Source of the DNA: Frankiaceae bacterium
GTDB taxonomy: Bacteria; Actinomycetota; Actinomycetes; Mycobacteriales; SCTD01
Length of the DNA: 64,000 nt
Direction of reading: 5' to 3'
Assembly: GCA_016650445.1 (NCBI GenBank)
Contig: JAENVS010000002.1
Location: forward strand, 10,980 to 74,979
Shown here: positions 10,060 to 64,000 of the stretch, one piece after another
How positions within the stretch are numbered: the stretch's first letter is position 1
Layout of the letters: every line of letters starts with the position of its first letter
Notes under the pieces: model-generated
What the model saw: the letters and a program-made list of their open reading frames with translations, nothing else
What the model was told of the DNA's origin: nothing
The model's database searches: none
Made by a program: the position numbers and the translations under genes

Positions 10060-10088
10060 GGGCGGCCCGCACGCACTAGGGTCCGCGC

Positions 10089-45607: not shown

Positions 45608-45617
45608 GGTCATTCGC

Positions 45618-46583: not shown

Positions 46584-46592
46584 GAGTCCGCC

Positions 46593-47390: not shown

Positions 47391-47452
47391 GCTACCCGGC
47401 GCTGCTCCACCTCATGTGGCCCCCTCGGGCTATCAAGCCATACCCTCGTCTC

Positions 47453-47954
47453 ATGTTCGCGGTCGTCGCCGGGCAGCGGCAAGACGACGCTGGCGGAGCC
47501 GCTGGCGACCAAACTGGCGCTGCCGCTCATCTCCAAAGACCACATCAAGGAGATGCTGGCCGACCAGCTGGGACTCGGGCCGCTGGCGGAGCAGTACGGG
47601 CGAGCGGCGGTGCACGTCATGCTCGGGTTGGCAGCCAGGTCGCCCGAGGTAGTGCTGGAGTCGTTCTTCTGGCCCGGCTTGTCGGAGCCAGAACTCCTTG
47701 CGCTGCATCGACCGCTGGTACAGGTCCACTGCCGCTGCGACCCCGCCTTGGCGCGTGAGCGGTTTGAGCGGCGGGCGCGAGTGGGCCGACGGCATGCGGT
47801 GCACAACGCGATGGACGACTGGGATCGCTTCTCCGACGGAGGCGGGCTGCTCGACCTCCCTGGGCCGCTTATCGCTGTGGACACTTCCACGGCTCTTGAC
47901 GTTGCCGGGGTCGCCCGAGAGGTCGTCGCAGCGTTGGCGGCAGTCAGCGCATAG
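47453..47954 (+). pseudogene. P-loop kinase-like (AAA_33-type) gene with apparent frameshift between start codon and Walker A
   Basis: ATG 47453 (MFAVVAG) is in one frame. The Walker A and the rest (PGSGKTTLAEPLATKLALPLISKDHIKEMLADQ...) are in the next frame, which has no ATG/GTG/TTG between the rhomboid stop and the P-loop. The first in-frame ATG (47553) lies after the P-loop. Confidence 0.45.
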
Positions 47955-48095
47955 GGATGCCGTTAGCCCATGTCCGTGACGGACGTGGACGTGCGAGCTC
48001 TTGGCGGAGCGGCAATGTTCTCCACAGCGAGGAATGCCTTGCACAGCAGGGGAATCCGTTCCGGTTTTGTCGGAGGTCGTCAGTAGGTTTCTCGC

Positions 48096-49532
48096 ATGCC
48101 CACCGCCGCCTCGCCCGTCGACTGGTCTACACGACCGGGGCCCTCGGCGATGTCGCCTGAGAAGCTGGCGGCGTTCGTAGACAAGGCGGTCGCCCGCACG
48201 GACGGCATGTTGTTCACGGCGACGCCGACCGAGGAGCTTGACGCAATCGGACGCTGGCAGCAGATCAAGGACCGGGCGTTCGCTGGTCTGATGCGCGAGA
48301 TCGTGGCGGCCTACAACCGGGCGGGCACCGAGGAGCGGGAGTTCGCTGCCGACGAGGTCGGTCTGGCGGTCGGGGCGGCGTCGACGACAGGCGGCAACCT
48401 GGTCGCGCAAGCACTCGCGGTGTCGGCGCTGCCCGGTTTGCTCGAAGCGGTCGATGCCGGGCAGCTCACCGAGCGGCACGTGCTGGCGGTTGTGCGCGAG
48501 CTGGACAGGGTCGAGCTCACGCTCGAGCAGCGGCAGGCGGTCGTGCTCGTCATGCTCGCGCGTTACCAGGGGCAGACACCCGGTGAGCTCGGCGCGCTGG
48601 TGGCCCGGCTGATCGTGCAGGTCGACCGGGCGGCTGCTGCCGCGCGGGACGCCAAGGCCACCGGGGAGCGCAAGGTGTGGTTCTCCCGCGACGTCGACGG
48701 CCAAGCGCTGGTGCTCGCCCGCGGGCCGGCCGCGAAGATCGCCGCGATCCGCGCGTCGCTCGAGGCGACCTTGCCGGACGAGGCCGAGCCCGGGGATGAG
48801 CGCAGCCGGGACGCGCGAGAGTTCGACCTGTTCGTCGACCTGCTGACCGGCGGCGCGGAGGCCGGATCCTGGAGTGCCGAAGTTGTCGTCCCGTTCTCTG
48901 TCGCGCAGGCCGGTGACGTGGAGCTGGCCGATATCCCGGGCCTCGGCCCGATCCTGCCCTCGACCGCCCGTGACCTGCTCGGCCAGTGCGACACAATCAC
49001 CCAGATCGCTGTCGACCAGGACGGCAAGGTCATCGCGGTCGGCGACCCGATCCGACCCGACTCCCCACCGGGACGACCCGCCGACGAGCCGCCGGTCGAA
49101 GAGCCGCCGGTCGACGAGCCGCCGGCCAGCGAGCCGCCGGCCAGCGAGCCGCCGGCCGACGAGCCGCTGGTCCAGCGATCGGGCATGACGCCGCTGTCAC
49201 CGCGGGTGCTGCGCCGCATCGCTTCCCCTCCGTCGATGCGGGACATGGCTGGCAGCGGCTACCGATTCCCACCCCGGCTCCGCCGGTTCCTCGAGGAGCG
49301 CGACCGCACCTGCGTGTTCCCGGGCTGCGGCCGACCCGCCCGCAAGACCGACAAAGACCACCGAAGGCCCTGGCCGGCCGGTCCGACCAGCGCCGACAAC
49401 GGCGACTGCCTGTGCCGACATCACCATCGCGCCAAGCACACGATCTTCACCGTCCTACGCGACACTGACGGCAGCTACATCTGGATTACCCGCGGCGGGT
49501 GGCAGTTCCGCCGACATCCCAAGGGCTACTGA
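48096..49532 (+). CDS. DUF222 / HNH endonuclease domain protein (13E12-repeat-like family)
   Basis: N-terminal DUF222-like region. C-terminal HNH/zinc motif (CVFPGCGRPARKTDKDH...NGDCLCRHHHRAKH). Preceded by a lower-GC spacer. Confidence 0.8.
   Translation: MPTAASPVDWSTRPGPSAMSPEKLAAFVDKAVARTDGMLFTATPTEELDAIGRWQQIKDRAFAGLMREIVAAYNRAGTEEREFAADEVGLAVGAASTTGGNLVAQALAVSALPGLLEAVDAGQLTERHVLAVVRELDRVELTLEQRQAVVLVMLARYQGQTPGELGALVARLIVQVDRAAAAARDAKATGERKVWFSRDVDGQALVLARGPAAKIAAIRASLEATLPDEAEPGDERSRDAREFDLFVDLLTGGAEAGSWSAEVVVPFSVAQAGDVELADIPGLGPILPSTARDLLGQCDTITQIAVDQDGKVIAVGDPIRPDSPPGRPADEPPVEEPPVDEPPASEPPASEPPADEPLVQRSGMTPLSPRVLRRIASPPSMRDMAGSGYRFPPRLRRFLEERDRTCVFPGCGRPARKTDKDHRRPWPAGPTSADNGDCLCRHHHRAKHTIFTVLRDTDGSYIWITRGGWQFRRHPKGY
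49083..49172 (+). repeat. In-frame 15-nt tandem repeat x6 inside the HNH gene (encodes [DES]EPP[VA] units)
   Basis: GACGAGCCGCCGGTC / GAAGAGCCGCCGGTC / GACGAGCCGCCGGCC / AGCGAGCCGCCGGCC / AGCGAGCCGCCGGCC / GACGAGCCGCTGGTC, read directly from the sequence. Confidence 0.9.
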
Positions 49533-49628
49533 CATCGTCACAGCCCGCCCCGCCAACCGTCAGCCCGAACCCGCAGACGAGCAGCCGCCCGCCAGCGGCT
49601 TCGGCATGCCCGCAGCCGCTGACCCTGT

Positions 49629-49805
49629 CTAGTCCTCGTCGTCGTCGAGGCGGGCGAGCCAGGTGGCCAGTCGCTCGACCGGCACCTCGAAGTCGGGGTT
49701 GAGGTCGACGAACTCGCGCAGCCGCTCGGCCAGCCAGGCCAGCGACACCGACTCGTCGCCGCGCCGCTGGGCGAGCTCCTCGAGCCCACGGTCGGTGAAG
49801 TACAT
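49629..49805 (-). CDS. Small acidic protein (DUF6104-like)
   Basis: 58 aa (MYFTDRGLEELAQRRGDESVSLAWLAERLREFVDLNPDFEVPVERLATWLARLDDDED), beginning 2 nt after the kgd stop. Family name is from memory. Confidence 0.55.
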   Translation of the reverse strand: MYFTDRGLEELAQRRGDESVSLAWLAERLREFVDLNPDFEVPVERLATWLARLDDDED

Positions 49806-49807
49806 CG

Positions 49808-52800
49808 CTACCTCGCGAAGACGCCCTCGATGAGGGCCGCCTGCTCTGCCTCGTGCACCTTGCTGGAGCCGGCCGCGGGAGAGGCGGCCGACGTGCGCGA
49901 GATGCGCCGCAGCGTGACGTGGTCCGGCAGGTGGTCGGGCAAGGACAGGGCGATGTGCGACCACGCGCCCTGGTTGGCCGGCTCTTCCTGGGCCCAGACG
50001 ACGTCGCGGGCGTTGGGGTACGCCGAGAGCACGTCGGTCACCTCTTCGCCGGGCAGGGGGTAGAGCTGCTCCACTCGGATGAGCGCGGTGGAGGTGTCCC
50101 CGGACTTGCGTCGCGCGGCCAGCAGGTCGTAGTAGACCTTGCCCGCGGTCAGGACGACGCGCGTGACGCCGGACGGCTCCGGCGCGTCAGGGTCGCCGAG
50201 CACCGGCGCGAACGTCCCTGAGGTGAAGTCGTCGATCGACGATGAGGCAGCGCGCAGCCGCAGCATCGACTTCGGCGACATGACGATCAGCGGGCGCTGG
50301 TGCGACGCCAGCGCCTGGCGCCGCAGGAGGTGGAAGTAGTTGGCGGGCGACGTCGGCGCCGCGACGGTCATGTTGTCGTCGGCACACAGCTGCAGGTAGC
50401 GCTCGAGCCGAGCGGAGGAGTGGTCCGGCCCCTGGCCCTCGTAGCCGTGCGGGAGCAGCAGCGTCACGCCGGAGCGCTGGCCCCACTTCGCCTCGCCGCT
50501 CGCGATGAACTCGTCGATGATCGTCATCGCGCCGTTCGTGAAGTCGCCGAACTGCGCCTCCCACACCACGAGCGCTTCCGGTCGGGCGACGGCGTAGCCG
50601 TACTCGAAGCCCATCGCGGCGTACTCGCTCAGCAGCGAGTCGTAGACGTAGAACGTCCCCTGGCTCTCCGACAAGTGCGCGAGCGGTGTGTGCTCGTTGC
50701 CGTTCGTACGGTCTACGAGGACGGCATGACGGTGACCGAACGTCCCGCGCCGTGAGTCCTGGCCCGCTAGTCGGACCGGCCGACCCTCGAGCAGCAGCGA
50801 GCCGAAGGCCAGCGTCTCGCCGAGCGCCCAGTCGATCGTCGCGTCGTTGATCATGGCGGCGCGCTTCTGCAGCTGCGGCAGCAGGCGCGGGTGCACCGTG
50901 AACGCCTCCGGCAGGTTGACCTGGGAGTCGACGATCGTCTTCACGACCTCCATCGGGATCGCGGTCTGCACCGCCTCCGGTGCCGGCGTCTCCATCACCG
51001 GCTCGACGGAGGGTGCGGTCGATGCTTCGCGCGTGCCCTGGAACACCTTCTCGAGCTGCTCCTGGTAGTCGCGCAGCGCTGCCTCGGCCTGCTCGACGGT
51101 GATGTCGCTGCGCCCGATGAGGGCCTCTGTGTAGATCTTGCGCACCGACCGCTTGGCGTCGATCGTGTCGTACATCAGCGGCTGCGTGAACGAGGGCTCG
51201 TCGACCTCGCTGTGTCCGCGGCGGCGGTAGCAGACCATGTCGATGACGACGTCCTTCTTGAACGCCTGCCGGTAGTCGAACGCGAGCTTCGCCACGCGAA
51301 CACACGCCTCCGGGTCGTCCCCGTTGACGTGGAAGATCGGCGCCTGCACCATGCGCGCGACGTCGGTCGCGTAGACCGACGACCGTGCGCTGTGCGGCCC
51401 CGTCGTGAACCCCACCTGGTTGTTGACGACCACGTGGATCGTGCCGCCCGTGCGGTAGCCCCGCAGCTGGCCCATCTGGAGCGTCTCGGCCACGACGCCC
51501 TGGCCGGCGAAGGCGGCATCGCCGTGCAGCAGCAGCGGGAGGACCGTGAAGCCCTCCTCGCCCTTGTTGATGACGTCCTGCTTGGCGCGCACGACACCCT
51601 CGAGAACCGGATCGACGGCTTCGAGGTGCGAGGGGTTGGCCTGCAGGCTCACGTTGACCGCGTTGCCGTCGGGTGAGACGAAGACTCCCTCGGCCCCCAG
51701 GTGGTACTTCACGTCGCCGGAGCCGTGGGCCGTGCGCGGGTCGATGTTGCCCTCGAACTCACGGAAGATCTGCGCGTGGCTCTTGCCGACGATGTTGGCC
51801 AGCACGTTGAGCCGGCCTCGGTGCGGCATGGCGATCGCCACCTCGTCCAGGCCGGCCGCTGCAGCCTTTCTCAACACGCCGTCGAGCAGCGGGATCACCG
51901 ACTCCGCGCCCTCGAGCGAGAAGCGCTTCTGCCCGACGTACTTCGTCTGCAGGAAGGTCTCGAAAGCCTCTGCCGCATTGAGTCGCTTGAGCACGTGCAG
52001 CTGGTCGTCGCGGTCTGGGGCCTCCGCCTTGCGCTCTACCCGCTGCTGGAGCCACGCCCGCTCGGCTGGGTCCTGGATGTGCATGTACTCCAGGCCGACG
52101 GTCCGGCAGTAGGAGTCGCGCAGTACGCCGAGGATGTCGCGCAGTTTCTTGACGCGCTTTCCGGCGAAGCCGCCGACCGGGAACTCGCGGTCCAGGTCCC
52201 ACAGCGACAGGCCGTGGTTGACGACGTCGAGGTCGGGGTGGGCGCGGACCTTGAAGTTGAGCGGATCGGTGTCGGCGAGCAGATGCCCGCGGACCCGGTA
52301 GGCGTGGATGAGCTCGTGGACGCGGGTCGCCTTGTCGAGCTCGCCCTCGGCGGTCGCGTGCTGGTCGTGCACCCAGCGCACCGGCTCGTACGGGATCCGC
52401 AGCGAGTGGAAGACCTCGTCGTAGAACCCGTCCTCGCCGAGCAGCAGCTCGTGCATCCGGCGCAGGAACTCACCGGACTGGGCGCCCTGGATCACCCGGT
52501 GGTCGTAGGTCGACGTCAGCGTGATGATCTTGCTGATCGCGAGCGCCGCGAGCGTCTCCTCCGACGCGCCCTGGAACTCCGCGGGGTACTCCATCGCCCC
52601 GACGCCGAGGATCGCGCCCTGCCCCTTCATCAGGCGGGGCACGGAGTGGACGGTGCCGATGCCGCCGGGGTTGGTCAGGCTGATCGTGGCGCCTTGGAAG
52701 TCCTCGGTCGTCAGCTTGCCGCCACGTGCGCGGCGCACGATGTCCTCGTACGCCGCCCAGTAGGCGGCGAAGTCCATCGTGTCGGCGTCGCGGATGGCCG

Positions 52801-53485
52801 CCACGACGAGCGAGCGGGTGCCGTTGGGGTTCTGCAGGTCGATCGCCAGCCCCAGCCCGACGTGCTCCGGCGTCATCAGCGCCGGCTTGCCGCCGACCTC
52901 GGCGAACGCGTTGTTCATGACCGGGACGTCGGCGACGGCCTTCACGAGGGCGTAACCGATCAGGTGCGTGAAGGACACCTTGCCGCCGCGGCTGCGACGC
53001 AGGTGGTTGTTGATCACCGTGCGGTTGTCGGCCAGCAGCTTGGCCGGCACAGCCCGCACGCTGGTCGCGGTCGGCACGGTCAGGCTCGACTCCATGTTGG
53101 CGACGACGCGGGCCGCGGCGCCCTTCAACGGCGTGCTTGCCGTGCCCGCAGGGGCGGCGACCTCAGGGGTCGGTGCGGAAGGGGCAGGCGCGGGGGCGAT
53201 CGGCGCAGCCGGTGGGGCCGCGATCACGGGGGCTGGGGCAGCCGGCGCGGGAGCGGGCGTCGCGGGCGCCTCGGCCACCGGCGCGGGAGTCGATGCCGCC
53301 GTGCCGTTGGCCGTGCCGCTGGGCCCGCCGTTGGCGGTCGGGCCCTCGCCTGGGGAGTAGTCGGAGAGGAACTCACGCCACTCGGCTGACACGCTCGAGG
53401 GGTCCTTGAGGTACTGCTGGTGGATCTCGTAGACGAGCCACTCGTTGGCACCGAAGTCGGTCTGCTGTCCCGGCTGCGTGGACAC
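49808..53485 (-). CDS. kgd: Multifunctional 2-oxoglutarate decarboxylase/dehydrogenase E1 with N-terminal E2-like acyltransferase domain (Kgd/OdhA)
   Basis: 1225 aa. Ala/Pro-rich linker, then an acyltransferase-like segment ([23 protein letters not shown]), then a TPP E1 domain ([21 protein letters not shown]). Confidence 0.95.
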
Positions 53486-53652: not shown

Positions 53653-54804
53653 ATGGACAGGGATCGACCATCGCTCGTGGTCGGGGTGCTGCGCGAGCAG
53701 GCGCCGGCCGAGCGCCGAGTCGCGCTGACGCCCGAAGTCGTGGGCCGGGTGCAGGCCCTGGGGCTGGAGGTGCTCGTGGAGCGCGGCGCCGGCGAGCGGG
53801 CCATGTACAGCGACGGCGACTACACCGCCACGGGTGCGCTGCTCGTGGCCCGCGAGGAGCTGCTGTCCCGTGCGGACGTGCTGGTGTCCGTCCGCGCGCC
53901 GGACCGCCCAACGATGCTGGCACTGCGGCCGCGGCAGGCGCTGATCGGCATGCTGCGTCCCGATCTCGACCTCGAGCTGGCGGCGACGCTCGCGGACACG
54001 AAGGCCACCACGCTCAGCTTCGAGGGGCTGCCGCGCACTCTGTCGCGGGCACAGTCGATGGACGCGCTGACGTCGCAGGCCAACGTGGCCGGCTACAAGG
54101 CCGCCCTCGTTGCCGCCGATGCCTACGGCGGGTTCTTCCCGATGCTCATGACCGCTGCCGGCACCACCCGGCCGGCGTCCGTCCTCGTGCTCGGCGCGGG
54201 CGTCGCCGGGCTCCAGGCGATCGCCACCGCGAAGCGCCTCGGCGCCCGGGTCACCGGCTACGACGTCCGCGCGGAGGCGCGGGGCGACGTGCTGTCGCTC
54301 GGCGCCGCCTTCCTCGACCTCGGCGGCGTGAGCGTGGCCAGCGAAGGGGGATACGCCCGACCGCTGACCGCGGAGGAGAGCGCGGCGCAGCAGCAGGCGC
54401 TGGTCGACGCGATCAGCGGCTTCGACGTCATCATCACCACGGCGCAGGTGCCGGGCCGGCGACCGCCGGTGCTGGTTCCGCGTGAGGCGCTGGACCGCCT
54501 CGGGACCGGGTCGGTCGTCGTCGACATCGCGGCCAGCCCGCTCGGCGGCAACGTCGACGGCTCGGCCCCGGACGTGACGATCGTCACCGACCGCGGTGTG
54601 ACGGTGATCGGTGCCGGCAACCTGCCGTCCCAGGTCCCGCGCGCGGCGTCCACCGCGTATGCGCGCAACGTCACCGCTCTGCTCGGTCTGCTCGTCCGCG
54701 ACGGCGCCTTGAGCGTCGATCTGCAGGATGAGGTGCTCGCCGGACTCGTCGTCACTCACGACGGCGTCGTCAACCGCCCCGAGACGCTGGGAGGCAGCCG
54801 ATGA
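53653..54804 (+). CDS. pntAA: NAD(P) transhydrogenase subunit alpha part 1
   Basis: Alanine-dehydrogenase-like fold. VLGAGVAGLQAIATAKRLGA Rossmann motif. Confidence 0.9.
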   Translation: MDRDRPSLVVGVLREQAPAERRVALTPEVVGRVQALGLEVLVERGAGERAMYSDGDYTATGALLVAREELLSRADVLVSVRAPDRPTMLALRPRQALIGMLRPDLDLELAATLADTKATTLSFEGLPRTLSRAQSMDALTSQANVAGYKAALVAADAYGGFFPMLMTAAGTTRPASVLVLGAGVAGLQAIATAKRLGARVTGYDVRAEARGDVLSLGAAFLDLGGVSVASEGGYARPLTAEESAAQQQALVDAISGFDVIITTAQVPGRRPPVLVPREALDRLGTGSVVVDIAASPLGGNVDGSAPDVTIVTDRGVTVIGAGNLPSQVPRAASTAYARNVTALLGLLVRDGALSVDLQDEVLAGLVVTHDGVVNRPETLGGSR

Positions 54805-55097
54805 CGGCAGCCCTGCTCGCCACGATCACAGTCTTCGTGCTCGGTCTGCTCGTCGGCTTCGAGGTGATCAGCAAGGTCCCGCAGAGCTTGCACACGCCGC
54901 TGATGTCGGGCGCCAACGCCATCCACGGTGTGATCGTGGTCGGTGTGATGGTGATCGCCGCGTCCTGCGACTCGGTGCTCGGCCGGATCCTGCTGTTCAT
55001 TGCGGCGGTGTTCGCCGCGATGAACGTCGTCGGCGGCTACGTCGTCACGGACCGGATGCTGGAGATGTTCCGGGCGAAGCGGGGCGGCGGCTCATGA
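54801..55097 (+). CDS. pntAB: NAD(P) transhydrogenase subunit alpha part 2 (membrane)
   Basis: ATGA overlap. 98-aa, 3-TM protein with the PLMSGANAIHG motif. Confidence 0.9.
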   Translation: MTAALLATITVFVLGLLVGFEVISKVPQSLHTPLMSGANAIHGVIVVGVMVIAASCDSVLGRILLFIAAVFAAMNVVGGYVVTDRMLEMFRAKRGGGS

Positions 55098-56503
55098 GCG
55101 CGTTCGACAGCACCGTCGCGCTGATCTACCTCGCCGCTGCGACGTCGTTCGTCGTCGGCCTGCACCTGATGAACTCCCCGGCCAGCGCCCGCCGCGGCAA
55201 CGCGGTGTCCGCAACGGGGATGGCCGTCGCGATCCTCACCACCGGGGTCGTCCTGGTCCGTGACGACGTCATCTCCGGCGGGTCTGTCGGCGTGCTCGTT
55301 GCGGGGCTGGTCGTGGGCGCGGTCGCCGGTCTGATCGGTGCCCGGCGCGTGAAGATGACGGAGATGCCGCAGCTGGTGTCGCTGTTCAACGCGGTCGGTG
55401 GCGGCGCGGCAGCGCTGGTCGCACTCGTCGAGGTGGTCGACGGCGAGGGCCTGCGGGACGCCGCCGTCAGCCTGTCGCTGCCCACGGTGCTCGACGTCCT
55501 CATCGGCGCCATCACCTTCAGCGGCTCGCTGGTCGCCGCAGGCAAGCTCGCTGGTCGAGTGTCGGGTGCACCGGTGACATCGGCGCTCGGCCGGGCGGCG
55601 TCAATGGTTCTGGCGGTCGTCGCTGTGGTCGGCTCCCTGGTGATCCTCACCGGACACGGCGGTGGAGCCGTCCTCGTCGTCGTCGGGGTGGCCGCGCTCG
55701 GGCTGGGCGTGCTGCTCACGCTGCCGATCGGCGGCGCCGACATGCCCGTCGTCATCTCGCTGCTCAACGCGTTCACCGGCACCGCGGTCGCGATGGCCGG
55801 CTTCGTCCTCGAGAACACGCTGCTGGTGGTTGCCGGAGCCCTCGTCGGCGCGGCCGGCGCGATCCTCACGCTCCTCATGGCGGAAGCGATGAACCGCTCG
55901 TTGATGAGCATCATGCTCGGCGGCTTCGGCACGGGAGACGAGGTCGTTGCCGTGGGCGCCGGTGGTGCTTCCGTGCGAGAGACCACGACGGACGACGCAG
56001 CCTTGCAGCTGGCCTACGCATCCAAGGTCGTCATGGTGCCCGGCTACGGGCTGGCCGCGGCGCAGGCACAGCACGAGATGGTCGACCTCGCGACCGCTCT
56101 CGAGGCACATGGCGTGGAGGTCAGCTACGGCATCCACCCGGTCGCCGGCCGGATGCCCGGGCACATGAACGTCCTGCTTGCCGAGGCCGACGTTCCCTAC
56201 ACCCAGCTGCGCGACCTGGAGGAGATCAACGGCGAGTTCAGCCGCACCGATGTCGTCCTCGTCGTCGGGGCCAACGACGTGACCAACCCGGCAGCCCGCC
56301 GCCCGGGCAACGCCGTCTCCGGAATGCCGATCCTGGACGTCGACCACGCCAAGAGCGTCATCGTCATCAAGCGCTCGATGGGGCACGGCTACGCGGGCAT
56401 CGAGAACGAGCTCTACGGCGACCCGAAGACCTCGATGCTCTTCAGCGACGCGAAGGCCGGCCTGCGTGAGCTGCGCACGGCGCTGTCGGCGTACGTCAAG
56501 TAG
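55094..56503 (+). CDS. pntB: NAD(P) transhydrogenase subunit beta
   Basis: ATGA overlap. Polytopic N-terminus plus a C-terminal NADP(H) domain (PGYGLAAAQAQH, HPVAGRMPGHMNVLLAEA, GANDV.NPAA). Confidence 0.9.
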   Translation: MSAFDSTVALIYLAAATSFVVGLHLMNSPASARRGNAVSATGMAVAILTTGVVLVRDDVISGGSVGVLVAGLVVGAVAGLIGARRVKMTEMPQLVSLFNAVGGGAAALVALVEVVDGEGLRDAAVSLSLPTVLDVLIGAITFSGSLVAAGKLAGRVSGAPVTSALGRAASMVLAVVAVVGSLVILTGHGGGAVLVVVGVAALGLGVLLTLPIGGADMPVVISLLNAFTGTAVAMAGFVLENTLLVVAGALVGAAGAILTLLMAEAMNRSLMSIMLGGFGTGDEVVAVGAGGASVRETTTDDAALQLAYASKVVMVPGYGLAAAQAQHEMVDLATALEAHGVEVSYGIHPVAGRMPGHMNVLLAEADVPYTQLRDLEEINGEFSRTDVVLVVGANDVTNPAARRPGNAVSGMPILDVDHAKSVIVIKRSMGHGYAGIENELYGDPKTSMLFSDAKAGLRELRTALSAYVK

Positions 56504-56519
56504 CTCTTGTACGACGGCG

Positions 56520-57569
56520 TCAGCGGAAGCCGGCTTGGAGCTTCGCCAGGGCGTCGGACCCCGGGCACAGCCGGTCGTAGGTGATCGACGCGAGCGCGGC
56601 GGCCGGCGTCTTGTTCAGGTCGTGCAGGTCGGCGACCTCGTCGTTGGCGTAGAGCAGGCCGGTGACGACCTCGCCGCGGGCGCGGTGTTCCTCGACGAAG
56701 CGGGCGACGGCCTGCCGGTCGGTCGGGTCGTAACCCTTCGGCACGGCCCGGAAGCGCATCGCGGTGCCGTCGTGCATCGTGACGCTGATCGCCCCCTCGG
56801 CGGGTACGGCCGCCACGATCTCCTCCCGCGGCGGCACGAAGTCGGTTGCCGTCACCTCGTGCTGGCGGGTGAACAGGTAGCTCTTCGTCGAGCCCTCGTG
56901 GTCGTTGAACTGGATGCACGGCGAGATGACGTCGATGAGGGCGAAACCGCGATGCGAGATGCCGGCCTGCAGGATTGGGATGAGCCGGTCCTTGTCGCCG
57001 GAGAACGCCCGCGCGACGAACGTGGCGCCGAGGCTGAGGGCCATGACGATCGGGTCGATCGGGGGCAGCAGGTTCGGCTCGCCCTTCTTCGACGTCGAGT
57101 CGATGTCGGCCGACGCGGAGAACTGGCCTTTCGTGAGCCCGTAGACGCCGTTGTTCTCGATGACGTAGAGCATGTTGATGTTGCGGCGGATCGCGTGAGC
57201 CAGGTGCCCGAGCCCGATCGACAGCGAATCGCCGTCTCCGGAGATGCCGAGGTAGGTGAGCTCGCGATTCGCGGCGTTCGCCCCGGTCGCGATCGTGGCC
57301 ATCCGGCCGTGGACCGAGTTGAACCCGTGTGCCCCGCGAACGAAGTACGCCGGCGTCTTGGACGAGCAGCCGATGCCCGACAGCTTGGCGATCTTGTGCG
57401 GCGGGATGCCGAGCTTGAACAACGCCTCGATCAGCGCGGCGGTCACCGAGTCGTGGCCGCAACCACCGCAGAGCGTCGACGGCGCGCCCTCGTAGTCGCG
57501 CACGGTCAGCCCCAGGTCGTTGTGCTGGAGGTGCGCCAGCGGGACCAGCGGCTTGGCGATCGAGGGCAC
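56520..57569 (-). CDS. korB: 2-oxoacid:ferredoxin oxidoreductase subunit beta (TPP-binding)
   Basis: CGGCGH cluster and TPP motifs (GDGD..IG, NN.VYGLTKGQ). Confidence 0.9.
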   Translation of the reverse strand: MPSIAKPLVPLAHLQHNDLGLTVRDYEGAPSTLCGGCGHDSVTAALIEALFKLGIPPHKIAKLSGIGCSSKTPAYFVRGAHGFNSVHGRMATIATGANAANRELTYLGISGDGDSLSIGLGHLAHAIRRNINMLYVIENNGVYGLTKGQFSASADIDSTSKKGEPNLLPPIDPIVMALSLGATFVARAFSGDKDRLIPILQAGISHRGFALIDVISPCIQFNDHEGSTKSYLFTRQHEVTATDFVPPREEIVAAVPAEGAISVTMHDGTAMRFRAVPKGYDPTDRQAVARFVEEHRARGEVVTGLLYANDEVADLHDLNKTPAAALASITYDRLCPGSDALAKLQAGFR

Positions 57570-57572
57570 GGT

Positions 57573-59423
57573 TCAGCCTCCCAGCTGGTTGCGGACGCCG
57601 TCGACGACGTGCTCGGCACTGAGCGGGAAGCCGCCGTACACGAGGACGGACTTCAGTCTGCTCTGATCGGCACCTGTCTCGAGCACGAGCAGGGAGCGCA
57701 GCTGCGCGTCACGGTTCTGCTCGATGACGAAGCAGGTCTCGTGGGCGTCGAGGAACTCCCGAACCTCGGCCTGGAACGGGAAGGAGCGGATGCGCATGAC
57801 ATCGACGGGGATACCTCCGTCGTCCAGCAGCTCTGCTGCCTCCCGCACGGCCAGGTCGCAGCTGCCCACGGTCACGATGCCGACCCGCGCCTCCGCGCGT
57901 CGCTCGACGGCCGGGCCGGGCATGTGGTCGGCGGCTGCCCTGTGCTTGTGCGCCAGGCGGTCGACGACCTCCTGGTACTTGTCCGGGATCTCGGTGTAGC
58001 CGCCGTACTTGTCGTGACCGGACCCGCGGACGAAATATGCACCGCGGGAGTCCTCGCCCGGGAACGTGCGCGGCGTGACGAAGTCGGCATCCTCGTCGGC
58101 GAAGCGGTGGAACTCCGTCATCAGGTCCAGATCGGCGCTCGTCAGCACCCGCCCGCGGTCGGGGAGGTAGGTGTCGTCCCACGTCAGGGTCGGCACCACC
58201 CAGTCGTTCATGCCGATGTCGAGGTCGGTCAGCACGATCACCGGTGTCTGAAAGCGCTCGGCCAGGTCGAACGCCTGGACAGCGAAGTCGAAGCACTCGG
58301 CCGGGTTCGCCGGGAACAGCAGCAGGTGCTTGGTGTCGCCGTGCGAGGCGTAGGCGCAGGCGAGGATGTCGCCTTGCTGGGTTCGCGTCGGCATCCCTGT
58401 CGAAGGACCGGTCCGCTGGACGTCGATGAGGACGGCGGGGATCTCGGTGTAGTAGCCGAACCCGAGCAGCTCGTTCATCAGCGAGATGCCCGGGCCGGAC
58501 GTGGCGGTGAAGGCCCGTGCGCCGTTCCAGTTGGCGCCGAGCACCATGCCCAGAGCCGCCAGCTCGTCCTCCGCCTGCAGGATCAGGTAGTCGTTGCGGT
58601 AGTCCGTCGTGCCGTCCGGCCGGTGCACGGCCTCGCGGCGGTACGTGCGGCACAGCGAGGTGAAGTTGTCCATGACGGACGTGGACGGGGTGATGGGGTA
58701 CCAGGCCGCGACGGTCGCTCCGGCGTACAGGCATCCGAGGGCCGTCGCGGTGTTGCCGTCGATGAGGATGCTGTCGCGGGTCGCGTCGATCGCGCTGAGG
58801 TGGAAGGGCAAGGGGCAGGCGAGGTGCTCCCGCGCGTAGTCGTAGCCGAGCCGCAGCGCGCGCTGGTTGGCCTCCCGCAGCTTCTCCTTCTTGGCGAAGG
58901 TCTCATCGAGCAGCGTTGAGACGACCTCGAGATCCACGTCGAGCAGTGCGACGAGGACGCCGGCGTAGCAGATGTTCTTCAGCAGCAGCCGCTCACGTGG
59001 CTTGTCGAACGCGTCCACGCACATCTGCGCCAGCGGTACGCCGAGGAAGGTGACGTCCTCGCGGTCGAGGGCCGCGTCGAGCGGCCAGGTCGAGTCGTAG
59101 AGGACGTAGCCACCGCTGCGGACCTCGGTGATGTCGGCGGCGTAGGTCTGGGCGTTCATCGCGACCATGAGGTCGTAGTCGAGCGCCCTCGCGGTCCAGC
59201 CGCTGCCGTTGACGCGGATCTCGTACCAGGTCGGCAACCCCTGGATGTTCGACGGGAACAGGTTCTTGCCCGACACCGGGATGCCCATCCGGAAGATCGC
59301 TCGCATGAGCAGGCCGTTGGCGCTCGCGGAGCCGGTGCCGTTGACGTTGGCGAGCTTGACGGCGAAGTCGTTGACCCGCACCTGCGCCGGGGCAACGTCC
59401 TGCGCGTTGTCGAGCGTCGTCAT
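57573..59423 (-). CDS. korA: 2-oxoacid:ferredoxin oxidoreductase subunit alpha
   Basis: ATG 59423 overlaps the stop of the upstream gene (ATGA). Typical KorA segments (NGTGSASAN, YPITPST, TSGPGISLM). Confidence 0.9.
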   Translation of the reverse strand: MTTLDNAQDVAPAQVRVNDFAVKLANVNGTGSASANGLLMRAIFRMGIPVSGKNLFPSNIQGLPTWYEIRVNGSGWTARALDYDLMVAMNAQTYAADITEVRSGGYVLYDSTWPLDAALDREDVTFLGVPLAQMCVDAFDKPRERLLLKNICYAGVLVALLDVDLEVVSTLLDETFAKKEKLREANQRALRLGYDYAREHLACPLPFHLSAIDATRDSILIDGNTATALGCLYAGATVAAWYPITPSTSVMDNFTSLCRTYRREAVHRPDGTTDYRNDYLILQAEDELAALGMVLGANWNGARAFTATSGPGISLMNELLGFGYYTEIPAVLIDVQRTGPSTGMPTRTQQGDILACAYASHGDTKHLLLFPANPAECFDFAVQAFDLAERFQTPVIVLTDLDIGMNDWVVPTLTWDDTYLPDRGRVLTSADLDLMTEFHRFADEDADFVTPRTFPGEDSRGAYFVRGSGHDKYGGYTEIPDKYQEVVDRLAHKHRAAADHMPGPAVERRAEARVGIVTVGSCDLAVREAAELLDDGGIPVDVMRIRSFPFQAEVREFLDAHETCFVIEQNRDAQLRSLLVLETGADQSRLKSVLVYGGFPLSAEHVVDGVRNQLGG

Positions 59424-61210
59424 GAGCCGTTCCCGTTCGAGCAGGGCTTTCCGGCGTACGGGAGAATGAGGTCGAAGCGCTGCATGTCCCAGGCGGCGGT
59501 GGGACAGCGCTCGGCGCACAGGCCGCAGTGCACGCAGAGGTTCTCGTCCTTGACCATGACCCGCGCGGTCTGGGGGAGGTCCTCGGAGACGAACAAGCCC
59601 TGGTCCGGGTTGAGCCGTGGTGCCTTGAGGCGAAGGGAGAGCTCGGCCTCCTCGCCGTCGGCCGTCATGGTCAGGCACTCGACGGGGCAGATGTCGATGC
59701 ACGCGTCACACTCGATGCACAGCGAGGTGTTGAAGACCGTCTGTATATCGCAGTTCAGGCAGCGCTGCACCTCACGTACGGTCTGCTCGACGGTGAACCC
59801 GAGCTCGACCTCCAGGCCGATGTCCTTGAAGCGCTTGGTGAGCTCGACGTGCTCCATCTTCTGGCGGCCCGCTGGGTTGTAGTCGTTGTGGTAGCTCCAC
59901 TCGCTGAGCCCCATCTTCGCGCTGATGAGGTTCATGCCTTCCTCGAGCCGATCGGTGAGCGGCCGGTCCTCGCAGCGGTTGTGGATGGAGATCGCGGCCT
60001 GGTGCGCGTGCGCGACGGCCCAGATGATGTTCTTCGGCCCGAAGGCCGAGTCACCGCCGAAGAAGACGCCGGGCAGCGTCGACTCCATCGTTGTCTCGTT
60101 GACGACCGGCACGTCCCAGTCGCCGAACTCGAGCCCGACGTCCCGCTCGATCCACGGGAAGGCGTTCTCCTGGCCGATCGCGAGGATGACATCGGTGCAC
60201 GGGAGTACGACGGTGTCGACCCGGCGCGACTTCGTCGCGTTCTCGTCCCACTCGAGCACCTCGAACTCCACGCCGGTCAGTCGGCCGTCCTCGACGATGA
60301 AGCGGGTCGGGGAGTGGTTGATGAGGATCTCGACGCCTTCCTCCTCGGCGTCGTCGAGCTCCCACGGCGAGGCTTTGAAGAAGCGCCTCGGCCGACGCGC
60401 GATAACCGTGATGTCCTTGCCACCGAGTCGGAGCGAGGAGCGGCAGCAGTCCATCGCCGTGTTGCCGACGCCGATGATGATCACCTGCTCACCGACCGAG
60501 GTGATGTGCTCGAACGCGATGGACTCGAGCCAGTCGATCCCGATGTGGATGCGCGAGTCGCCGGTCTCGTCCCAGCGGCCGGGCAGGTCGAGCTCCTTCC
60601 CGCGGGGTGCGCCGGTGCCGACGAAGACGGCGTCGTATCCCTCCTTGAGCAGCGCGCCGAGGCTCTCGACCGGCGTGCCGTAGCGGATGTCGACGCCCAT
60701 GTCGAGGATGACCTGGGTCTCCTCGTCGAGCACCTCGGCGGGCAGCCGGAAGGCCGGGATGTTGGTGCGCATGAGGCCACCGGCCTTCTCGAACTGCTCG
60801 TAGATCGTCACCGAGTAGCCGAGCGGCAGCAGGTCGTTGGCGACGGTGAGCGAGGCCGGGCCCGCGCCGACGCAGGCGATCCGCTTGCCGTTGCCCTGCT
60901 CCGGCGCCCGAGGGAGGCGATCGCTGATGTCGCCGCGCAGGTCGGCGGCGACCCGCTTGAGCCGGCAGATCGCGACCGGCTCCCCGTCGATGCGCTCGCG
61001 GCGGCAGGCCGGCTCGCAGGGCCGGTCGCACGTCCGGCCGAGGATCGCCGGGAAGACGTTGGACTCCCGGTTGACCATGTACGCGTCGTCGAAGCGGCCC
61101 TGGGCGATCAGCCGGATGTACTCGGGGACGTTCGTGTGCGCCGGGCAGGCGTACTGGCAGTCCACGACCTGGTGGAAGTAGTCCGGATCCCCGACGTCCG
61201 TTGGTTTCAC
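59420..61210 (-). CDS. GltD-like NAD(P)H-dependent FAD oxidoreductase fused to a C-terminal 2x[4Fe-4S] ferredoxin domain
   Basis: N-terminal GltD-type Fe-S region (CQYACP..GRTCDRPCEPAC), dinucleotide motifs (VGAGPASL, IIGVGNTAMD), and C-terminal CIECDACIDICP and CVHCGLCAERCP. Confidence 0.8.
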   Translation of the reverse strand: MKPTDVGDPDYFHQVVDCQYACPAHTNVPEYIRLIAQGRFDDAYMVNRESNVFPAILGRTCDRPCEPACRRERIDGEPVAICRLKRVAADLRGDISDRLPRAPEQGNGKRIACVGAGPASLTVANDLLPLGYSVTIYEQFEKAGGLMRTNIPAFRLPAEVLDEETQVILDMGVDIRYGTPVESLGALLKEGYDAVFVGTGAPRGKELDLPGRWDETGDSRIHIGIDWLESIAFEHITSVGEQVIIIGVGNTAMDCCRSSLRLGGKDITVIARRPRRFFKASPWELDDAEEEGVEILINHSPTRFIVEDGRLTGVEFEVLEWDENATKSRRVDTVVLPCTDVILAIGQENAFPWIERDVGLEFGDWDVPVVNETTMESTLPGVFFGGDSAFGPKNIIWAVAHAHQAAISIHNRCEDRPLTDRLEEGMNLISAKMGLSEWSYHNDYNPAGRQKMEHVELTKRFKDIGLEVELGFTVEQTVREVQRCLNCDIQTVFNTSLCIECDACIDICPVECLTMTADGEEAELSLRLKAPRLNPDQGLFVSEDLPQTARVMVKDENLCVHCGLCAERCPTAAWDMQRFDLILPYAGKPCSNGNGS

Positions 61211-63253: not shown

Positions 63254-63288
63254 GAGTGGCAGGGTAAGCGGATGCGGCGGACCAAGGC

Positions 63289-64000
63289 GTGAGCAGCACG
63301 AAGCGCCGTCCGAGCGTCCGACGGAAGATCGCGGTCGCGACCTGGCGCGCCTCGAAGGAGGGCCGCCTCTACGCGCGGATGGCCGTCGACGCGACGGCCC
63401 TGCTGGCTTTCTGCGCGGAGCAGCGCGCCCTCACGGGGATCCCCGTGACGCCGGCCGCTGTTGTCGGGCTGGCGTTCCAGCGCGGCGTCGAGCAGGTCCC
63501 GGCCTTCCACAACCGCGTCGTGTTCGGGCGGATCGTGCCGTTCCCGTCGTACGACGTCGCCTTCGCCGTCGACATCGAGGGCGGCGACGACCTCGCGCCG
63601 ACCAAGGTCCGCGACGCGGACAGGAAGACCGTCGCCGAGGTGGGGGCAGAGCTCGTCGCGGGCGCGGAGCGGCTGCGGGCTCGGGCCGACCGCGACTTCC
63701 AGACGACCAACGGCATCGCGCGGCTCGTCCCGTGGTTCCTGCTGCGGCCGCTGCTCGCGCTGGCGTCGCTGCTGAACGGCGGCATCGGCGTCCGGGCCTT
63801 CGGCCAGCCGGCGCACCCACTCGGCTCGCTCTTCGTCACCAACATCGGGTCGTTCGGCCTCGACGAGGGCTATGTCGCGCCGGTGCCGCTCGCGCGGGTG
63901 CCGCTGTACATCTGCGTCGGCGCCGTCTCGGACGCGGCGCTGGTCGTGCACGGCGAGGTGGTGGTCCGCCCGCAGCTCGTCATCACTGCGACCGCCGACC
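63289..64000 (+). CDS. 2-oxoacid dehydrogenase acyltransferase catalytic-domain protein (3' end beyond window)
   Basis: Not in the ORF track because there is no stop in the window. GTG 63289 opens a GC3-rich frame to nt 64000 (SSTKRRPSVRRKIAVATW...SLFVTNIGSFG...LVITATAD). It ends just before the expected DHR..DG catalytic motif. No lipoyl domain at the N-terminus. Confidence 0.65.
   Translation, partial: MSSTKRRPSVRRKIAVATWRASKEGRLYARMAVDATALLAFCAEQRALTGIPVTPAAVVGLAFQRGVEQVPAFHNRVVFGRIVPFPSYDVAFAVDIEGGDDLAPTKVRDADRKTVAEVGAELVAGAERLRARADRDFQTTNGIARLVPWFLLRPLLALASLLNGGIGVRAFGQPAHPLGSLFVTNIGSFGLDEGYVAPVPLARVPLYICVGAVSDAALVVHGEVVVRPQLVITATAD

Follow-up and report, generated by a model that had tools for sequence, protein, structure and literature searches.

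Several enzymes join an OFOR core to a pyridine nucleotide through a dedicated flavoprotein, which thereby replaces free ferredoxin: the NADH-dependent phenylglyoxylate dehydrogenase PadEFGHI of Aromatoleum evansii and the pyruvate:NADP+ oxidoreductase fusions of Euglena and Cryptosporidium follow this logic, while Mycobacterium tuberculosis and Thauera aromatica have two-gene KorAB systems. The closest described system is a three-subunit 2-oxoglutarate:NADP+ oxidoreductase (KGOR), which Ebenau-Jehle, Boll and Fuchs reportedly purified from Azoarcus (Aromatoleum) evansii in 2003 (J Bacteriol 185:6119). This enzyme is reported to be highly specific for 2-oxoglutarate, to reduce NADP+ directly, and to contain ~12 Fe per protomer. 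The title of the 2003 paper implies that it acts oxidatively and is tied to anaerobic aromatic degradation. In A. aromaticum EbN1, the GenBank entries CAI10532-CAI10534 are deposited as the gamma, alpha, and beta subunits of “2-ketoglutarate: NADP oxidoreductase,” and the corresponding alpha/beta/gamma annotation is also found in Azoarcus sp. CIB. The flavoprotein, termed the gamma subunit in the EbN1 annotation and “KGOR-alpha” in PMC10134865, is placed by the latter in the GltD/NfnB/DsrL/NsoC family.

The window analyzed here (64,000 nt of contig JAENVS010000002.1, from a Frankiaceae MAG) encodes three contiguous genes, korC, korA, and korB (Table 1). With a probability that we put at about 77%, their products make up an enzyme like the KGOR of Azoarcus/Aromatoleum evansii, a 2-oxoglutarate:NADP+ oxidoreductase with three subunits; this assignment is drawn from sequence comparison. 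The stop codon of korC (TGA, 59422-59420) and the start codon of korA (ATG, 59423-59421) have three bases in common (...ggc tcA TGA cg...), giving an ATGA overlap, and the tight packing noted in the preliminary description, including the short korA-korB spacer, is confirmed on the minus strand. Predicted masses of KorC, KorA, and KorB are 66.1, 67.6, and 37.1 kDa.

Table 1. Features of the korCAB locus and its neighborhood (positions in the window).
Feature	Position	Strand	Basis or remark
Putative kgd/sucA-type 2-oxoglutarate dehydrogenase E1, 1225 aa	49808..53485	minus	ORF and translation
pntAa	53653-54804	plus	ORF; proton-translocating NAD(P) transhydrogenase
pntAb	54801-55097	plus	ORF; proton-translocating NAD(P) transhydrogenase
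pntB	55094-56503	plus	ORF; proton-translocating NAD(P) transhydrogenase
korB, 349 aa, beta subunit (domain VI)	56520..57569	minus	GTG start at 57569
korA-korB spacer, 3 nt (acc)	57570..57572	minus	between korA TGA and korB GTG
korA, 616 aa, 2-oxoacid:acceptor oxidoreductase alpha subunit	57573..59423	minus	TGA stop at 57573; TIGR03710, Pfam
ATGA overlap, korC stop/korA start	59420..59423	minus	translational coupling
korC-type gene, 596 aa	59420..61210	minus	GTG start; ORF list; Pfam and NCBIfam
KorC C-terminal 2x[4Fe-4S] ferredoxin domain, residues 496-575	59486..59725	minus	Pfam Fer4_7 and Fer4
KorC Cys484-x-x-Cys487 pair (RCLNC), past the flavoprotein core	59750..59761	minus	conserved 80/80; aligns with RCLEC of 9bov_A
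KorC FAD and NAD(P)H dinucleotide-binding domains, residues 110-402	60005..60883	minus	PF07992
KorC N-terminal Fe-S domain (Fer4_20), residues 17-91	60938..61162	minus	PF14691, 61.4 bits (cutoff 25.8)

The Aromatoleum operons resemble this locus closely. On plasmid 2 of EbN1, the flavoprotein gene, korA, and korB lie in identical order with ATGA overlaps like that between korC and korA here, and the full-length products are 56, 53, and 53% identical to KorC (counterpart CAI10532.1), KorA, and KorB. A. evansii (CP141259.1) has the same order of genes for 592, 618, and 351 aa (65.5, 68.0, and 37.4 kDa), with full-length identities of 58% (P0187), 51%, and 54%; its korA and korB share an ATGA overlap, and a 1-nt gap (TGAGATG) separates korC from korA. 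The Aromatoleum and Frankiaceae proteins have in common every Fe-S Cys, the motifs for FAD, NADPH, and TPP, and an insertion in KorB. The preliminary description was aware of no characterized three-gene version, which is incorrect in view of the A. evansii enzyme and the named EbN1 genes (51-58% identity); as the former was reportedly purified in 2003, the present operon adds a new, poorly annotated member to a known kind. Two differences lie in the surroundings: the host is an actinobacterium without benzoyl-CoA pathway context, in contrast to the link of the Aromatoleum enzyme to anaerobic aromatic degradation, and the operon adjoins pntAB, kgd, and malic enzyme genes. Because identity is only 51-58%, substrate and nucleotide specificity could also differ.

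KorA contains domains III, I, and II (Pfam POR, POR_N, and PFOR_II) with a YPITP motif at residues 242-246, and scores 544 bits against TIGR03710 (cutoff 483). KorB, an exact match to MBK5305222.1, has the Pfam domain TPP_enzyme_C, the TPP motif GDGD...ENNG at residues 111-141, and four conserved Cys (34, 37, 68, and 218) for one [4Fe-4S] cluster. This make-up (III-I-II plus VI), with the same motifs, a single cluster, and no domain V, is that of the two-subunit OFORs (architecture described in PMC12337175), among which the Magnetococcus marinus OGOR (6n2n; KorA match 6n2n_A) is the best solved relative of both proteins and the broad-specificity Sulfolobus tokodaii OFOR (5b46) the second best. 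Compared with these enzymes, KorB has a longer C-terminus and an extra segment (about 224-274; ~40-50 residues relative to Magnetococcus KorB), which is present in Aromatoleum too. A further difference is that two-subunit OFORs have free ferredoxin as electron acceptor and no accompanying flavoprotein gene. Where the plasmid collection contains two-gene systems, their KorA is at most 32% identical to the KorA of this locus. Both KorA and KorB reach subfamily-level NCBIfam models only, falling under every equivalog cutoff.

KorC (exact match to MBK5305224.1 of the Frankiaceae MAG in a database search) is a fusion of a GltD/NfnB-family NAD(P)H/FAD flavoprotein with a 2x[4Fe-4S] ferredoxin domain at the C-terminus (Pfam and NCBIfam). 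The domains Fer4_20 (residues 17-91), Pyr_redox_2 (110-402), and a Fer4_7 dicluster (498-573), together with the motifs CIECDACIDICP (498-509) and CVHCGLCAERCP (559-570), bear out the domain reading given in the preliminary description. With Fer4_20 and two dinucleotide folds, KorC resembles the Fe-S flavoprotein family of NfnB, SudA, GltD, and the N-terminal module of DPD, and the PDB matches (E 1e-44 to 1e-73) include NfnI-L 5jca_L, NfnB 4ylf_B, GltD 2vdc_G, and DPD 1h7x; for the dinucleotide-binding part, NfnB, GltD, and DPD are listed at E 1e-44 to 1e-65. In contrast to the NfnB/GltD proteins, KorC lacks the N-terminal CxxC, retaining only Cys18 and Cys22 of the usual CxxC...CxxxCP motif, and it has a CxxC past the flavoprotein core in addition to the ferredoxin domain; this Cys484/Cys487 pair may supply the two cluster ligands missing from the truncated N-terminus. 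Its partner is KorAB, with the NfnA or GltB partner absent. As a candidate GltD, KorC was rejected (152-200 bits against GltD equivalog/subfamily cutoffs of 448-483, NCBIfam). For the operon as a whole, the matches to PadG (E 7e-12) and PadI (4.5e-5) are weak and fall far under the cutoff of the profile search, and PadEFGHI and the Euglena and Cryptosporidium fusions differ from KorCAB in flavoprotein family and subunit composition.

Conservation of the cofactor sites in KorC is nearly complete. Cys18, 22, 61, 65, 69, and 82 are kept in all 80 family members covering these positions, and the eight Cys of the ferredoxin domain in at least 80 of 81 sequences; altogether, 17 Cys are conserved in essentially all of the ~80 covering sequences, with 16 assigned to four predicted clusters and Cys512 as the other. 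The subunit sequences predict five [4Fe-4S] clusters, more than the ~12 Fe per protomer reported for the A. evansii enzyme would allow. The dinucleotide folds contain the motifs GAGPAS (115-120) and GVGNTAMD (247-254), and in the family alignment the second β-strand is followed by an invariant Arg272 and lacks an acidic residue at this point; such a signature appears to favor NADPH. An AlphaFold model of KorC (pLDDT 54.8) is too poor for cluster geometry.

These features suggest a mechanism centered on KorAB, a 2-oxoacid oxidoreductase core of two subunits without domain V, to which KorA contributes the domains for CoA and substrate, and KorB contributes TPP and one [4Fe-4S] cluster. The core would convert 2-oxoglutarate and CoA to succinyl-CoA and CO2 by oxidative decarboxylation, and the two electrons would enter the C-terminal ferredoxin domain of KorC, bypassing free ferredoxin. 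This domain is predicted to replace OFOR domain V or the free ferredoxin, and may dock where either normally sits. Electrons would then move through the N-terminal Fe-S clusters to FAD and on to NADP+ as hydride, although this order of carriers is read from the sequences, as are 2-oxoglutarate as the substrate and NADP rather than NAD as the nucleotide. The proposal that the fusion couples NAD(P)(H) to a 2-oxoacid with no need of free ferredoxin gains support from its homology to the named Aromatoleum genes.

The neighboring genes are consistent with this assignment. The pntAa-pntAb-pntB genes are convergent with korB across a 16-nt gap, and pntAB also flanks the operon elsewhere, at 11 of 80 loci from genomes and 7 of 80 from metagenomes. 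At least four different arrangements occur, spread over Frankiales, Chloroflexota, and Acidobacteriota. The transhydrogenase is a recurrent neighbor that lies outside the enzyme itself, and its recurrence agrees with a role of NADP(H) as partner. The product of the gene at 49808..53485 is, judged from its sequence, presumably a kgd/sucA-type E1, so that both routes of 2-oxoglutarate oxidation would be encoded within 8 kb, and KorCAB probably runs alongside the Kgd/ODH route in this genome. The NADPH formed could serve biosynthesis or pass via PntAB to the NADH pool. A malic enzyme gene is also among the neighbors of the operon and belongs, like kgd and pntAB, to TCA and NADPH metabolism.

An enzyme of the same architecture and NADP(H) coupling may instead act on pyruvate, on a branched-chain or aromatic 2-oxoacid, or on a broad range of substrates, which we consider unlikely. 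The subfamily-level rank of the KorA and KorB matches, the broad specificity of the S. tokodaii relative, and the acyl-CoA dehydrogenase genes beside the EbN1 copy would allow for this, but the nearest solved relative of both subunits is a 2-oxoglutarate enzyme, the Aromatoleum homologs are named for 2-ketoglutarate, the A. evansii enzyme is reportedly highly specific, and the neighbors belong to TCA/NADPH metabolism. The direction of the reaction can be questioned as well. Trace-gas-driven CO2 fixation has been discussed for soil lineages, including many hosts of the operon, and with the recurrent pntAB this could fit an NADPH-driven 2-oxoglutarate synthase that adds CO2 to succinyl-CoA while PntAB keeps the NADPH pool highly reduced. 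Although OFOR chemistry is reversible, 2-oxoglutarate-forming carboxylation requires +1.8 to +9.5 kJ/mol even with ferredoxins of -480 to -440 mV (PMC13147460). With NADPH at -320 to -380 mV the cost is therefore ~+20 to +33 kJ/mol (calculated from these ferredoxin values), with ~+20 kJ/mol or more at the physiological -380 mV, and the NADPH-dependent reductive carboxylation suggested earlier is thermodynamically unfavorable. ATP-citrate lyase and other rTCA genes were not seen within the window, and the A. evansii enzyme is oxidative to judge by the title of the 2003 paper. A reductive role is thus very improbable, and the physiological direction of KorCAB is more plausibly oxidative and NADPH-forming.

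KorC might also be a flavoprotein that bifurcates or confurcates electrons in the manner of NfnB: its FAD would divide them over the N- and C-terminal Fe-S branches or merge them, linking NADP(H) to a second acceptor besides KorAB. Its closest solved relatives include 5jca_L (NfnI, the large subunit of the NADH-dependent ferredoxin:NADP oxidoreductase) and 4ylf_B and the large fusion proteins 9bov_A, 9n5u_A, and 8oh5_C, all of which we take to be NfnB-type modules of electron-bifurcating complexes; it has two separate Fe-S modules, and distant homologs attach to Rieske/cytochrome b complexes. However, no fourth gene, NfnA-like or other, is conserved beside the operon in 160 loci, with pntAB alone recurring across phyla, and the A. 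evansii enzyme reportedly reduces NADP+ directly. As NADP+ oxidizes 2-oxoglutarate in a strongly exergonic reaction, bifurcation would be unneeded, and we regard it as highly doubtful. Scarcely credible is an incidental adjacency, with the flavoprotein serving another enzyme and KorAB using free ferredoxin, despite public names of relatives such as “glutamate synthase small subunit” and “formate dehydrogenase beta subunit.” Among GTDB species representatives, the flavoprotein gene is followed immediately by korA at 78 of 79 testable loci, and at 74 of 76 testable metagenome loci retrieved with KorA alone it immediately precedes korA. Separate occurrence of the fusion and korAB, posed at the outset as evidence against a shared function, was thus looked for and found in one of 79 loci in one direction and two of 76 in the other (L008, L103, and L113, which lack the partner genes). 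Such conservation indicates an arrangement beyond chance. KorC and KorA share the same four best records in the plasmid collection (one Aromatoleum and three Variovorax, 51-56% identity), and all others are at most 34% identical; these matching gaps indicate co-inheritance. With overlapping start and stop codons besides, and glutamate synthase large subunit and molybdopterin genes absent from the flanks of the examined loci, incidental adjacency is largely refuted by the linkage data.

The linkage of korC to korA is still present at 47 and 43% KorC identity, whereas KorC-like proteins at 35-39% (L167-L169) have Rieske, cytochrome b, and cytochrome c partner genes, so that the KorAB-linked clade ends between 43 and 39% identity. 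NAD(P) oxidoreductase subunits of Rieske/cytochrome b complexes have been discussed for anammox and related bacteria. These GltD-ferredoxin proteins (~600 aa) align with KorC over their full length and have the same Fer4_20, Pyr_redox_2, and Fer4_7 domains, but differ in their partners, with korAB absent. The clade of the window is distinct and highly conserved, with 73-95% identity across Actinomycetota, Acidimicrobiia, Chloroflexota, Dormibacterota, and Acidobacteriota and ~57% to Betaproteobacteria. More than 578 species possess the operon, most of them soil members of the Actinomycetota, Acidimicrobiia, Acidobacteriota, Chloroflexota, and Dormibacterota, and the novelty, a modest one, lies in this spread under misleading database names.

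The three genes korC, korA and korB, with korC encoding a flavoprotein-ferredoxin fusion, probably constitute an actinobacterial member of the three-subunit 2-oxoglutarate:NADP+ oxidoreductase (KGOR) family, a reading drawn from sequence comparison to which we assign a probability of roughly three in four. The genes are adjacent and co-oriented, in the order Fe-S flavoprotein with ferredoxin domain, KorA and KorB, as in Aromatoleum aromaticum EbN1 and Aromatoleum (Azoarcus) evansii, and they are tightly packed: the TGA stop of korC has three bases in common with the ATG of korA (...tcATGAcg...), and korA and korB are separated by 3 nt (TGA-acc-GTG). The layout that the preliminary description had drawn from the DNA alone held in all details when compared with the ORF coordinates, both junctions, the Pfam domains, and the motif positions. 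The predicted masses of KorC, KorA, and KorB are 66.1, 67.6, and 37.1 kDa, compared with 65.5, 68.0, and 37.4 kDa in A. evansii. Between 56300 and 61500, a promoter scan returned no promoter-like site and a terminator scan returned one terminator-like match, inside korC; no Rfam RNA element was found near korCAB. The GC content of korCAB (0.67-0.68) is slightly under the window mean (~0.71).

Features of the window and of related loci (window coordinates unless another replicon or locus is named)
Feature	Position	Strand	Remarks
korC	59420..61210	-	ORF, 596 aa, GTG start; protein identical to MBK5305224.1
korA	57573..59423	-	ORF, 616 aa
korB	56520..57569	-	ORF, 349 aa, GTG start; protein identical to MBK5305222.1
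KorB segment (residues about 224-274)	56748-56900	-	~40-50 residues
pntAa-pntAb-pntB	53653-56503	+	proton-translocating transhydrogenase; converges on korB, 16-nt gap
Gene presumed to be kgd/sucA	49808-53485		1225 aa; read from sequence
Malic enzyme gene	44321-45604		
Zn-dependent dehydrogenase gene	45456-46580		
c-di-GMP-II-GAG aptamer match	1462-1575	+	Rfam, 41.2 bits
c-di-GMP-II-GAG aptamer match	3122-3236	+	Rfam, 50.5 bits
Long ORF	3052-5658		product with DUF11 repeats
AT-skew dip	10000-12900		skew -0.42, GC 0.76
Arg-rich ORF	10.2-12.9 kb	-	873-894 aa
Terminal ORF	63268-63999	+	runs off window end
EbN1 flavoprotein gene	plasmid 2, 4890-6677		ATGA overlap with next gene
EbN1 OFOR alpha gene	plasmid 2, 6674-8542		ATGA overlap with next gene
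EbN1 OFOR beta gene	plasmid 2, 8539-9594		
A. evansii flavoprotein gene	chromosome		592 aa; first of three; 6001-7779 of L163 (CP141259.1 3356244-3370022)
A. evansii POR/POR_N gene	chromosome		618 aa; second; 7781-9637 of L163
A. evansii TPP gene	chromosome		351 aa; third; 9634-10689 of L163
Distant KorC relatives, loci L167, L168, L169	5001-10733, 5001-9318, 5001-8176		35-39% identity

KorA has Pfam matches to POR, POR_N, and PFOR_II and KorB to TPP_enzyme_C, and neither protein has a Pfam match to Fer4. KorA scores 544 bits against NCBIfam TIGR03710 (2-oxoacid:acceptor oxidoreductase alpha subunit; curated cutoff 483) and keeps the YPITP motif; KorB matches the PorB/KorB subfamily (NCBIfam) and keeps both the cysteines of a single proximal cluster (34, 37, 68, and 218) and the TPP motif GDGD...ENNG. 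With domains III-I-II in KorA, one four-cysteine cluster in KorB, and no domain V, which where present carries the medial and distal clusters of the larger 2-oxoacid:ferredoxin oxidoreductases (OFORs) (PMC12337175), the pair has the features of an alpha-beta OFOR. A stand-alone two-gene KorAB served by free ferredoxin was nonetheless rejected, as the translationally coupled third gene brings a tethered ferredoxin domain. For both subunits, the closest solved structures by sequence are chains A and B of the Magnetococcus marinus 2-oxoglutarate:ferredoxin oxidoreductase (6n2n), and the next closest is the Sulfolobus tokodaii OFOR. One segment of KorB and its longer C-terminus are absent from the Magnetococcus and Sulfolobus proteins, whereas Aromatoleum KorB has both; column identity within the segment is ~52%, versus 76-82% in the core. 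As a speculation, this insertion may provide a docking surface for the flavoprotein KorC.

KorC has Pfam matches to Fer4_20 (residues 17-91), Pyr_redox_2 (110-402), and the Fer4_7 dicluster domain (498-573). Its dinucleotide-fold glycine motifs lie at 115-120 (GAGPAS) and 247-254 (GVGNTAMD) and the ferredoxin motifs quoted in the preliminary description at 498-509 and 559-570, in agreement with its account of two dinucleotide folds and a C-terminal ferredoxin domain. Matches in the PDB (E 1e-44 to 1e-73) include NfnI-L (5jca_L), NfnB (4ylf_B), and GltD (2vdc_G), and by this sequence similarity KorC belongs to the NfnB/GltD/DPD family. Arg272 is invariant among family members in the conservation columns, and from the sequence we infer a preference of KorC for NADP over NAD. 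In a comparison with 80 relatives, 17 KorC cysteines are kept in essentially every covering sequence: six in the N-terminal domain (18, 22, 61, 65, 69, and 82), two shortly past the flavoprotein core (484 and 487), and nine in the ferredoxin domain (498, 501, 504, 508, 512, 559, 562, 565, and 569). The conserved cluster-ligand cysteines number 16 in KorC and four in KorB. Of the usual GltD/NfnB motif, the KorC N-terminus is missing the first CxxC, and the RC484LNC487 pair aligns to 'RCLEC' of 9bov_A; Cys484 and Cys487 would presumably complete the N-terminal cluster that lacks its first CxxC, so that KorC is predicted to carry four [4Fe-4S] clusters and KorB one. The AlphaFold2 model of KorC, built from a 21-sequence alignment, has a pLDDT of 54.8, with the Fe-S domains below 50.

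Several other assignments of KorC were considered and set aside. Against TIGR01317 and TIGR01318 it scores 152.5 and 200.3 bits, far under the cutoffs of 447.7 and 483, and no GltB-like gene was found in the flanks, either in the window or by neighborhood clustering of 80 loci; KorC is therefore not the glutamate synthase small subunit, GltD. The label of formate dehydrogenase beta subunit, applied by JGI and NCBI to close relatives, was rejected because no gene for a molybdopterin catalytic subunit lies beside korC in the window or among the recurrent neighbors in the 80 loci. For an NfnAB-type bifurcating transhydrogenase, the NfnB-like fold is supported, but an NfnA partner was not found, as no NfnA-like gene (FNR-like, [2Fe-2S]) recurs in the neighborhoods of these loci.

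The link to a characterized enzyme comes from Aromatoleum. Translated searches of a plasmid collection with KorC recovered full-length homologs of 56% identity in four plasmid records (three Variovorax megaplasmids and plasmid 2 of EbN1), with the remaining records at or below 34%; the search with KorA gave the same gap, led by the same four records, with the others again at or below 34%. Over their full lengths, KorC, KorA, and KorB of the window are 56, 53, and 53% identical to their EbN1 counterparts and 58, 51, and 54% identical to those of A. evansii. The EbN1 flavoprotein is deposited as '2-ketoglutarate: NADP oxidoreductase, gamma subunit', a name also used in Azoarcus sp. CIB, and by exact look-up EbN1 KorA and KorB are deposited as alpha and beta subunits of this oxidoreductase. 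The naming in EbN1 and CIB, and the A. evansii homolog, emerged from a protein search with the EbN1 flavoprotein as query. The tie between genes and purified enzyme consists of the GenBank product names in EbN1 and CIB, together with the occurrence of this gene cluster in A. evansii, from which a 2-oxoglutarate:NADP+ oxidoreductase was reportedly purified (Ebenau-Jehle, Boll and Fuchs, J Bacteriol 2003, 185:6119). The preliminary description, aware of no characterized three-gene version, was mistaken on this point, as the family was first purified in 2003 from A. evansii. In another study, the A. evansii 'KGOR-alpha' subunit is placed among GltD/NfnB/DsrL/NsoC homologs (PMC10134865). The window proteins have predicted sites for each of the expected cofactors: FAD, NADP(H), TPP, and Fe-S clusters. 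The A. evansii enzyme reportedly has three subunits of about 63, 62, and 37 kDa, contains FAD, TPP, and Fe-S, and is said to be specific for 2-oxoglutarate and NADP+; the masses predicted for the window and for A. evansii are in keeping with these sizes.

Conservation of the gene cluster was examined by a scan from KorC using one genome per GTDB species, in which at least 578 species had a relative, and the best 80 loci were analyzed. Among these loci (73-95% identity), korA lies directly 3' of korC in 78 of 79 that could be judged; one locus ends too early, and the sole exception is L008. With KorA alone as the query, korC was directly upstream of korA in 74 of 76 testable metagenome loci (58-70% identity), all but L103 and L113. 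Incidental adjacency of korC and korAB is refuted by these linkage counts, and frequent occurrence of the fusion without korAB, or the reverse, which had been proposed as the observation that would count against the idea, was not seen. The proposal that KorAB is served by an NAD(P)(H)-linked flavoprotein-ferredoxin is instead favored by the Aromatoleum homology and the conserved linkage. In ~90% of loci, the upstream stop overlaps an in-frame start candidate or has one within 15 nt, a rough indication of tight packing that is biased to small gaps because the start nearest the upstream stop is taken. The breaks in linkage are real but rare. In L008 (JAJPKF010000030.1), the korC relative is followed by a mycothiol-type maleylpyruvate isomerase-like (MDMPI) gene and a solute-binding protein gene; this contig is binned as 'Proteobacteria' and looks actinobacterial. 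In L103 and L113, no flavoprotein gene is found within 3-4.5 kb upstream of korAB, where a sigma factor and a tetrapyrrole methylase, or a glyoxalase, are encoded.

More distant KorC relatives were sought among 1.84 billion representatives clustered at 50% identity. At 47 and 43% identity, the genes of full-length relatives are still directly followed by korA and korB. At 39, 36, and 35%, proteins with KorC-like architecture have different neighbors, being encoded immediately 5' of genes for Rieske, cytochrome b, and cytochrome c proteins rather than korAB, and the KorAB-linked clade is therefore well delimited. Different Fe-S or heme complexes seem to have recruited the GltD-plus-ferredoxin fusion as a reusable adaptor for NAD(P)H. 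Within the clade, KorC of the window actinobacterium is 73-76% identical to that of Acidobacteriota, Chloroflexota, and Dormibacterota, and ~57% to that of Betaproteobacteria. Strong constraint could account for this pattern and the slightly low operon GC, as could horizontal transfer between soil bacteria.

Clustering of all ORFs from the 80 genome loci identified pntAB as the only korCAB neighbor common to several phyla; it occurs at 11 of these 80 loci and, in the metagenome set, at 7 of 80. At least four arrangements occur across Frankiales, Chloroflexota, and Acidobacteriota (loci including L028, L040, L049, L074, L078, L085, L090, and L093): convergent in Frankiales, divergent in Bryobacteraceae, co-directional and immediately 5' of korCAB in a Chloroflexi MAG (L028), and co-directional and immediately 3' of it in Acidobacteria (L040, L074, L085, L090, and L093). 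By chance, a single-copy locus would be expected within 6 kb in ~0.25% of genomes; the association is thus real, with the reservation that species within a family are not independent, and it provides evidence, separate from homology, that the redox partner is NADP(H). In some Acidobacteria, same-strand pntAB begins ~30-50 nt past korB, and there it may be part of the korCAB operon. Other frequent neighbors (MFS transporter, response regulator, signal peptidase, and cyclopropane-fatty-acid synthase-like and HxlR-like genes) were rejected as lineage-specific synteny, being confined to closely related Acidimicrobiaceae. In the window, the genes from 44321 to 53485 form with pntAB and korCAB a stretch of 17 kb in which genes linked to the TCA cycle and to NADP(H) are abundant. 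The position of korCAB beside pntAB and the presumed kgd suggests a second, NADPH-yielding route of 2-oxoglutarate oxidation in this actinobacterium.

In the most likely scheme, 2-oxoglutarate and CoA would react at TPP in KorA/KorB, and electrons would pass from TPP through the KorB [4Fe-4S] cluster to the two clusters of the KorC ferredoxin domain, then to the two N-terminal clusters, FAD, and finally NADP+. By analogy, we infer this order of carriers and a docking site for the ferredoxin domain like that of domain V in the larger OFORs. A 2-oxoacid other than 2-oxoglutarate is an improbable substrate; the 2-oxoglutarate enzyme as closest solved relative of KorAB, and the recurrence of pntAB nearby, lend indirect support to a putative CoA-dependent oxidation of 2-oxoglutarate with NADP+. 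With ferredoxins at -480 to -440 mV, succinyl-CoA carboxylation costs +1.8 to +9.5 kJ/mol (PMC13147460), values from which we computed about +20 to +33 kJ/mol with NADPH at -320 to -380 mV. Operation of korCAB in reverse, as a carboxylating system, is unlikely at this thermodynamic cost, and the physiological direction should be oxidative.

With its NfnB-type FAD flanked by two separate Fe-S modules, KorC might conceivably be more than a simple wire. A bifurcating mode is nevertheless unlikely, because no fourth partner gene is conserved, and we give very little credence to the far-reaching extension that KorC bifurcates or confurcates and, with PntAB, allows aerobic soil Actinomycetota, Acidobacteriota, and Dormibacterota to fix CO2 onto succinyl-CoA by NADPH. 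In a milder version, korCAB could represent an oxygen-tolerant, lipoate-independent, NADPH-yielding TCA step that is widespread and unrecognized in aerobic soil bacteria.

Many of the at least 578 species representatives with a KorC relative come from soil and peat lineages, and carriers include Frankiales, Mycobacteriales, Acidimicrobiia, Bryobacteraceae, Chloroflexota, and Dormibacterota. The KGOR-type family has many members, shows unusual conservation among soil phyla, and adjoins pntAB; in the literature searched, prior work concerns one anaerobic aromatic degrader only, and no study of the korCAB operon in Actinomycetota was found. The KGOR name of EbN1 and CIB has not spread to close relatives of KorC, its 90% cluster included, which are publicly named 'FAD-dependent oxidoreductase', 'glutamate synthase', 'formate dehydrogenase beta subunit', or 'NADPH-dependent glutamate synthase beta subunit-like oxidoreductase/ferredoxin'. 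As a result of these misleading names, metabolic reconstructions will count the cluster as a KOR that depends on ferredoxin, in some cases as a marker of the rTCA cycle, and overlook NADPH as its most likely product. This is no new kind of enzyme, and the value of the observation is corrective and ecological.

Elsewhere in the window, both c-di-GMP-II-GAG riboswitch aptamer matches exceed the gathering score of 40, and the second lies at the 5' end of the long ORF with DUF11 repeats. The strong AT-skew dip falls over plus-strand LivH/LivM-type ABC permease genes; the Arg-rich minus-strand ORF of this region, for which Pfam returned no match, was rejected as a shadow ORF over these genes. The terminal ORF has a weak match (E 6e-9) to PF00198, the 2-oxoacid dehydrogenase acyltransferase catalytic domain.
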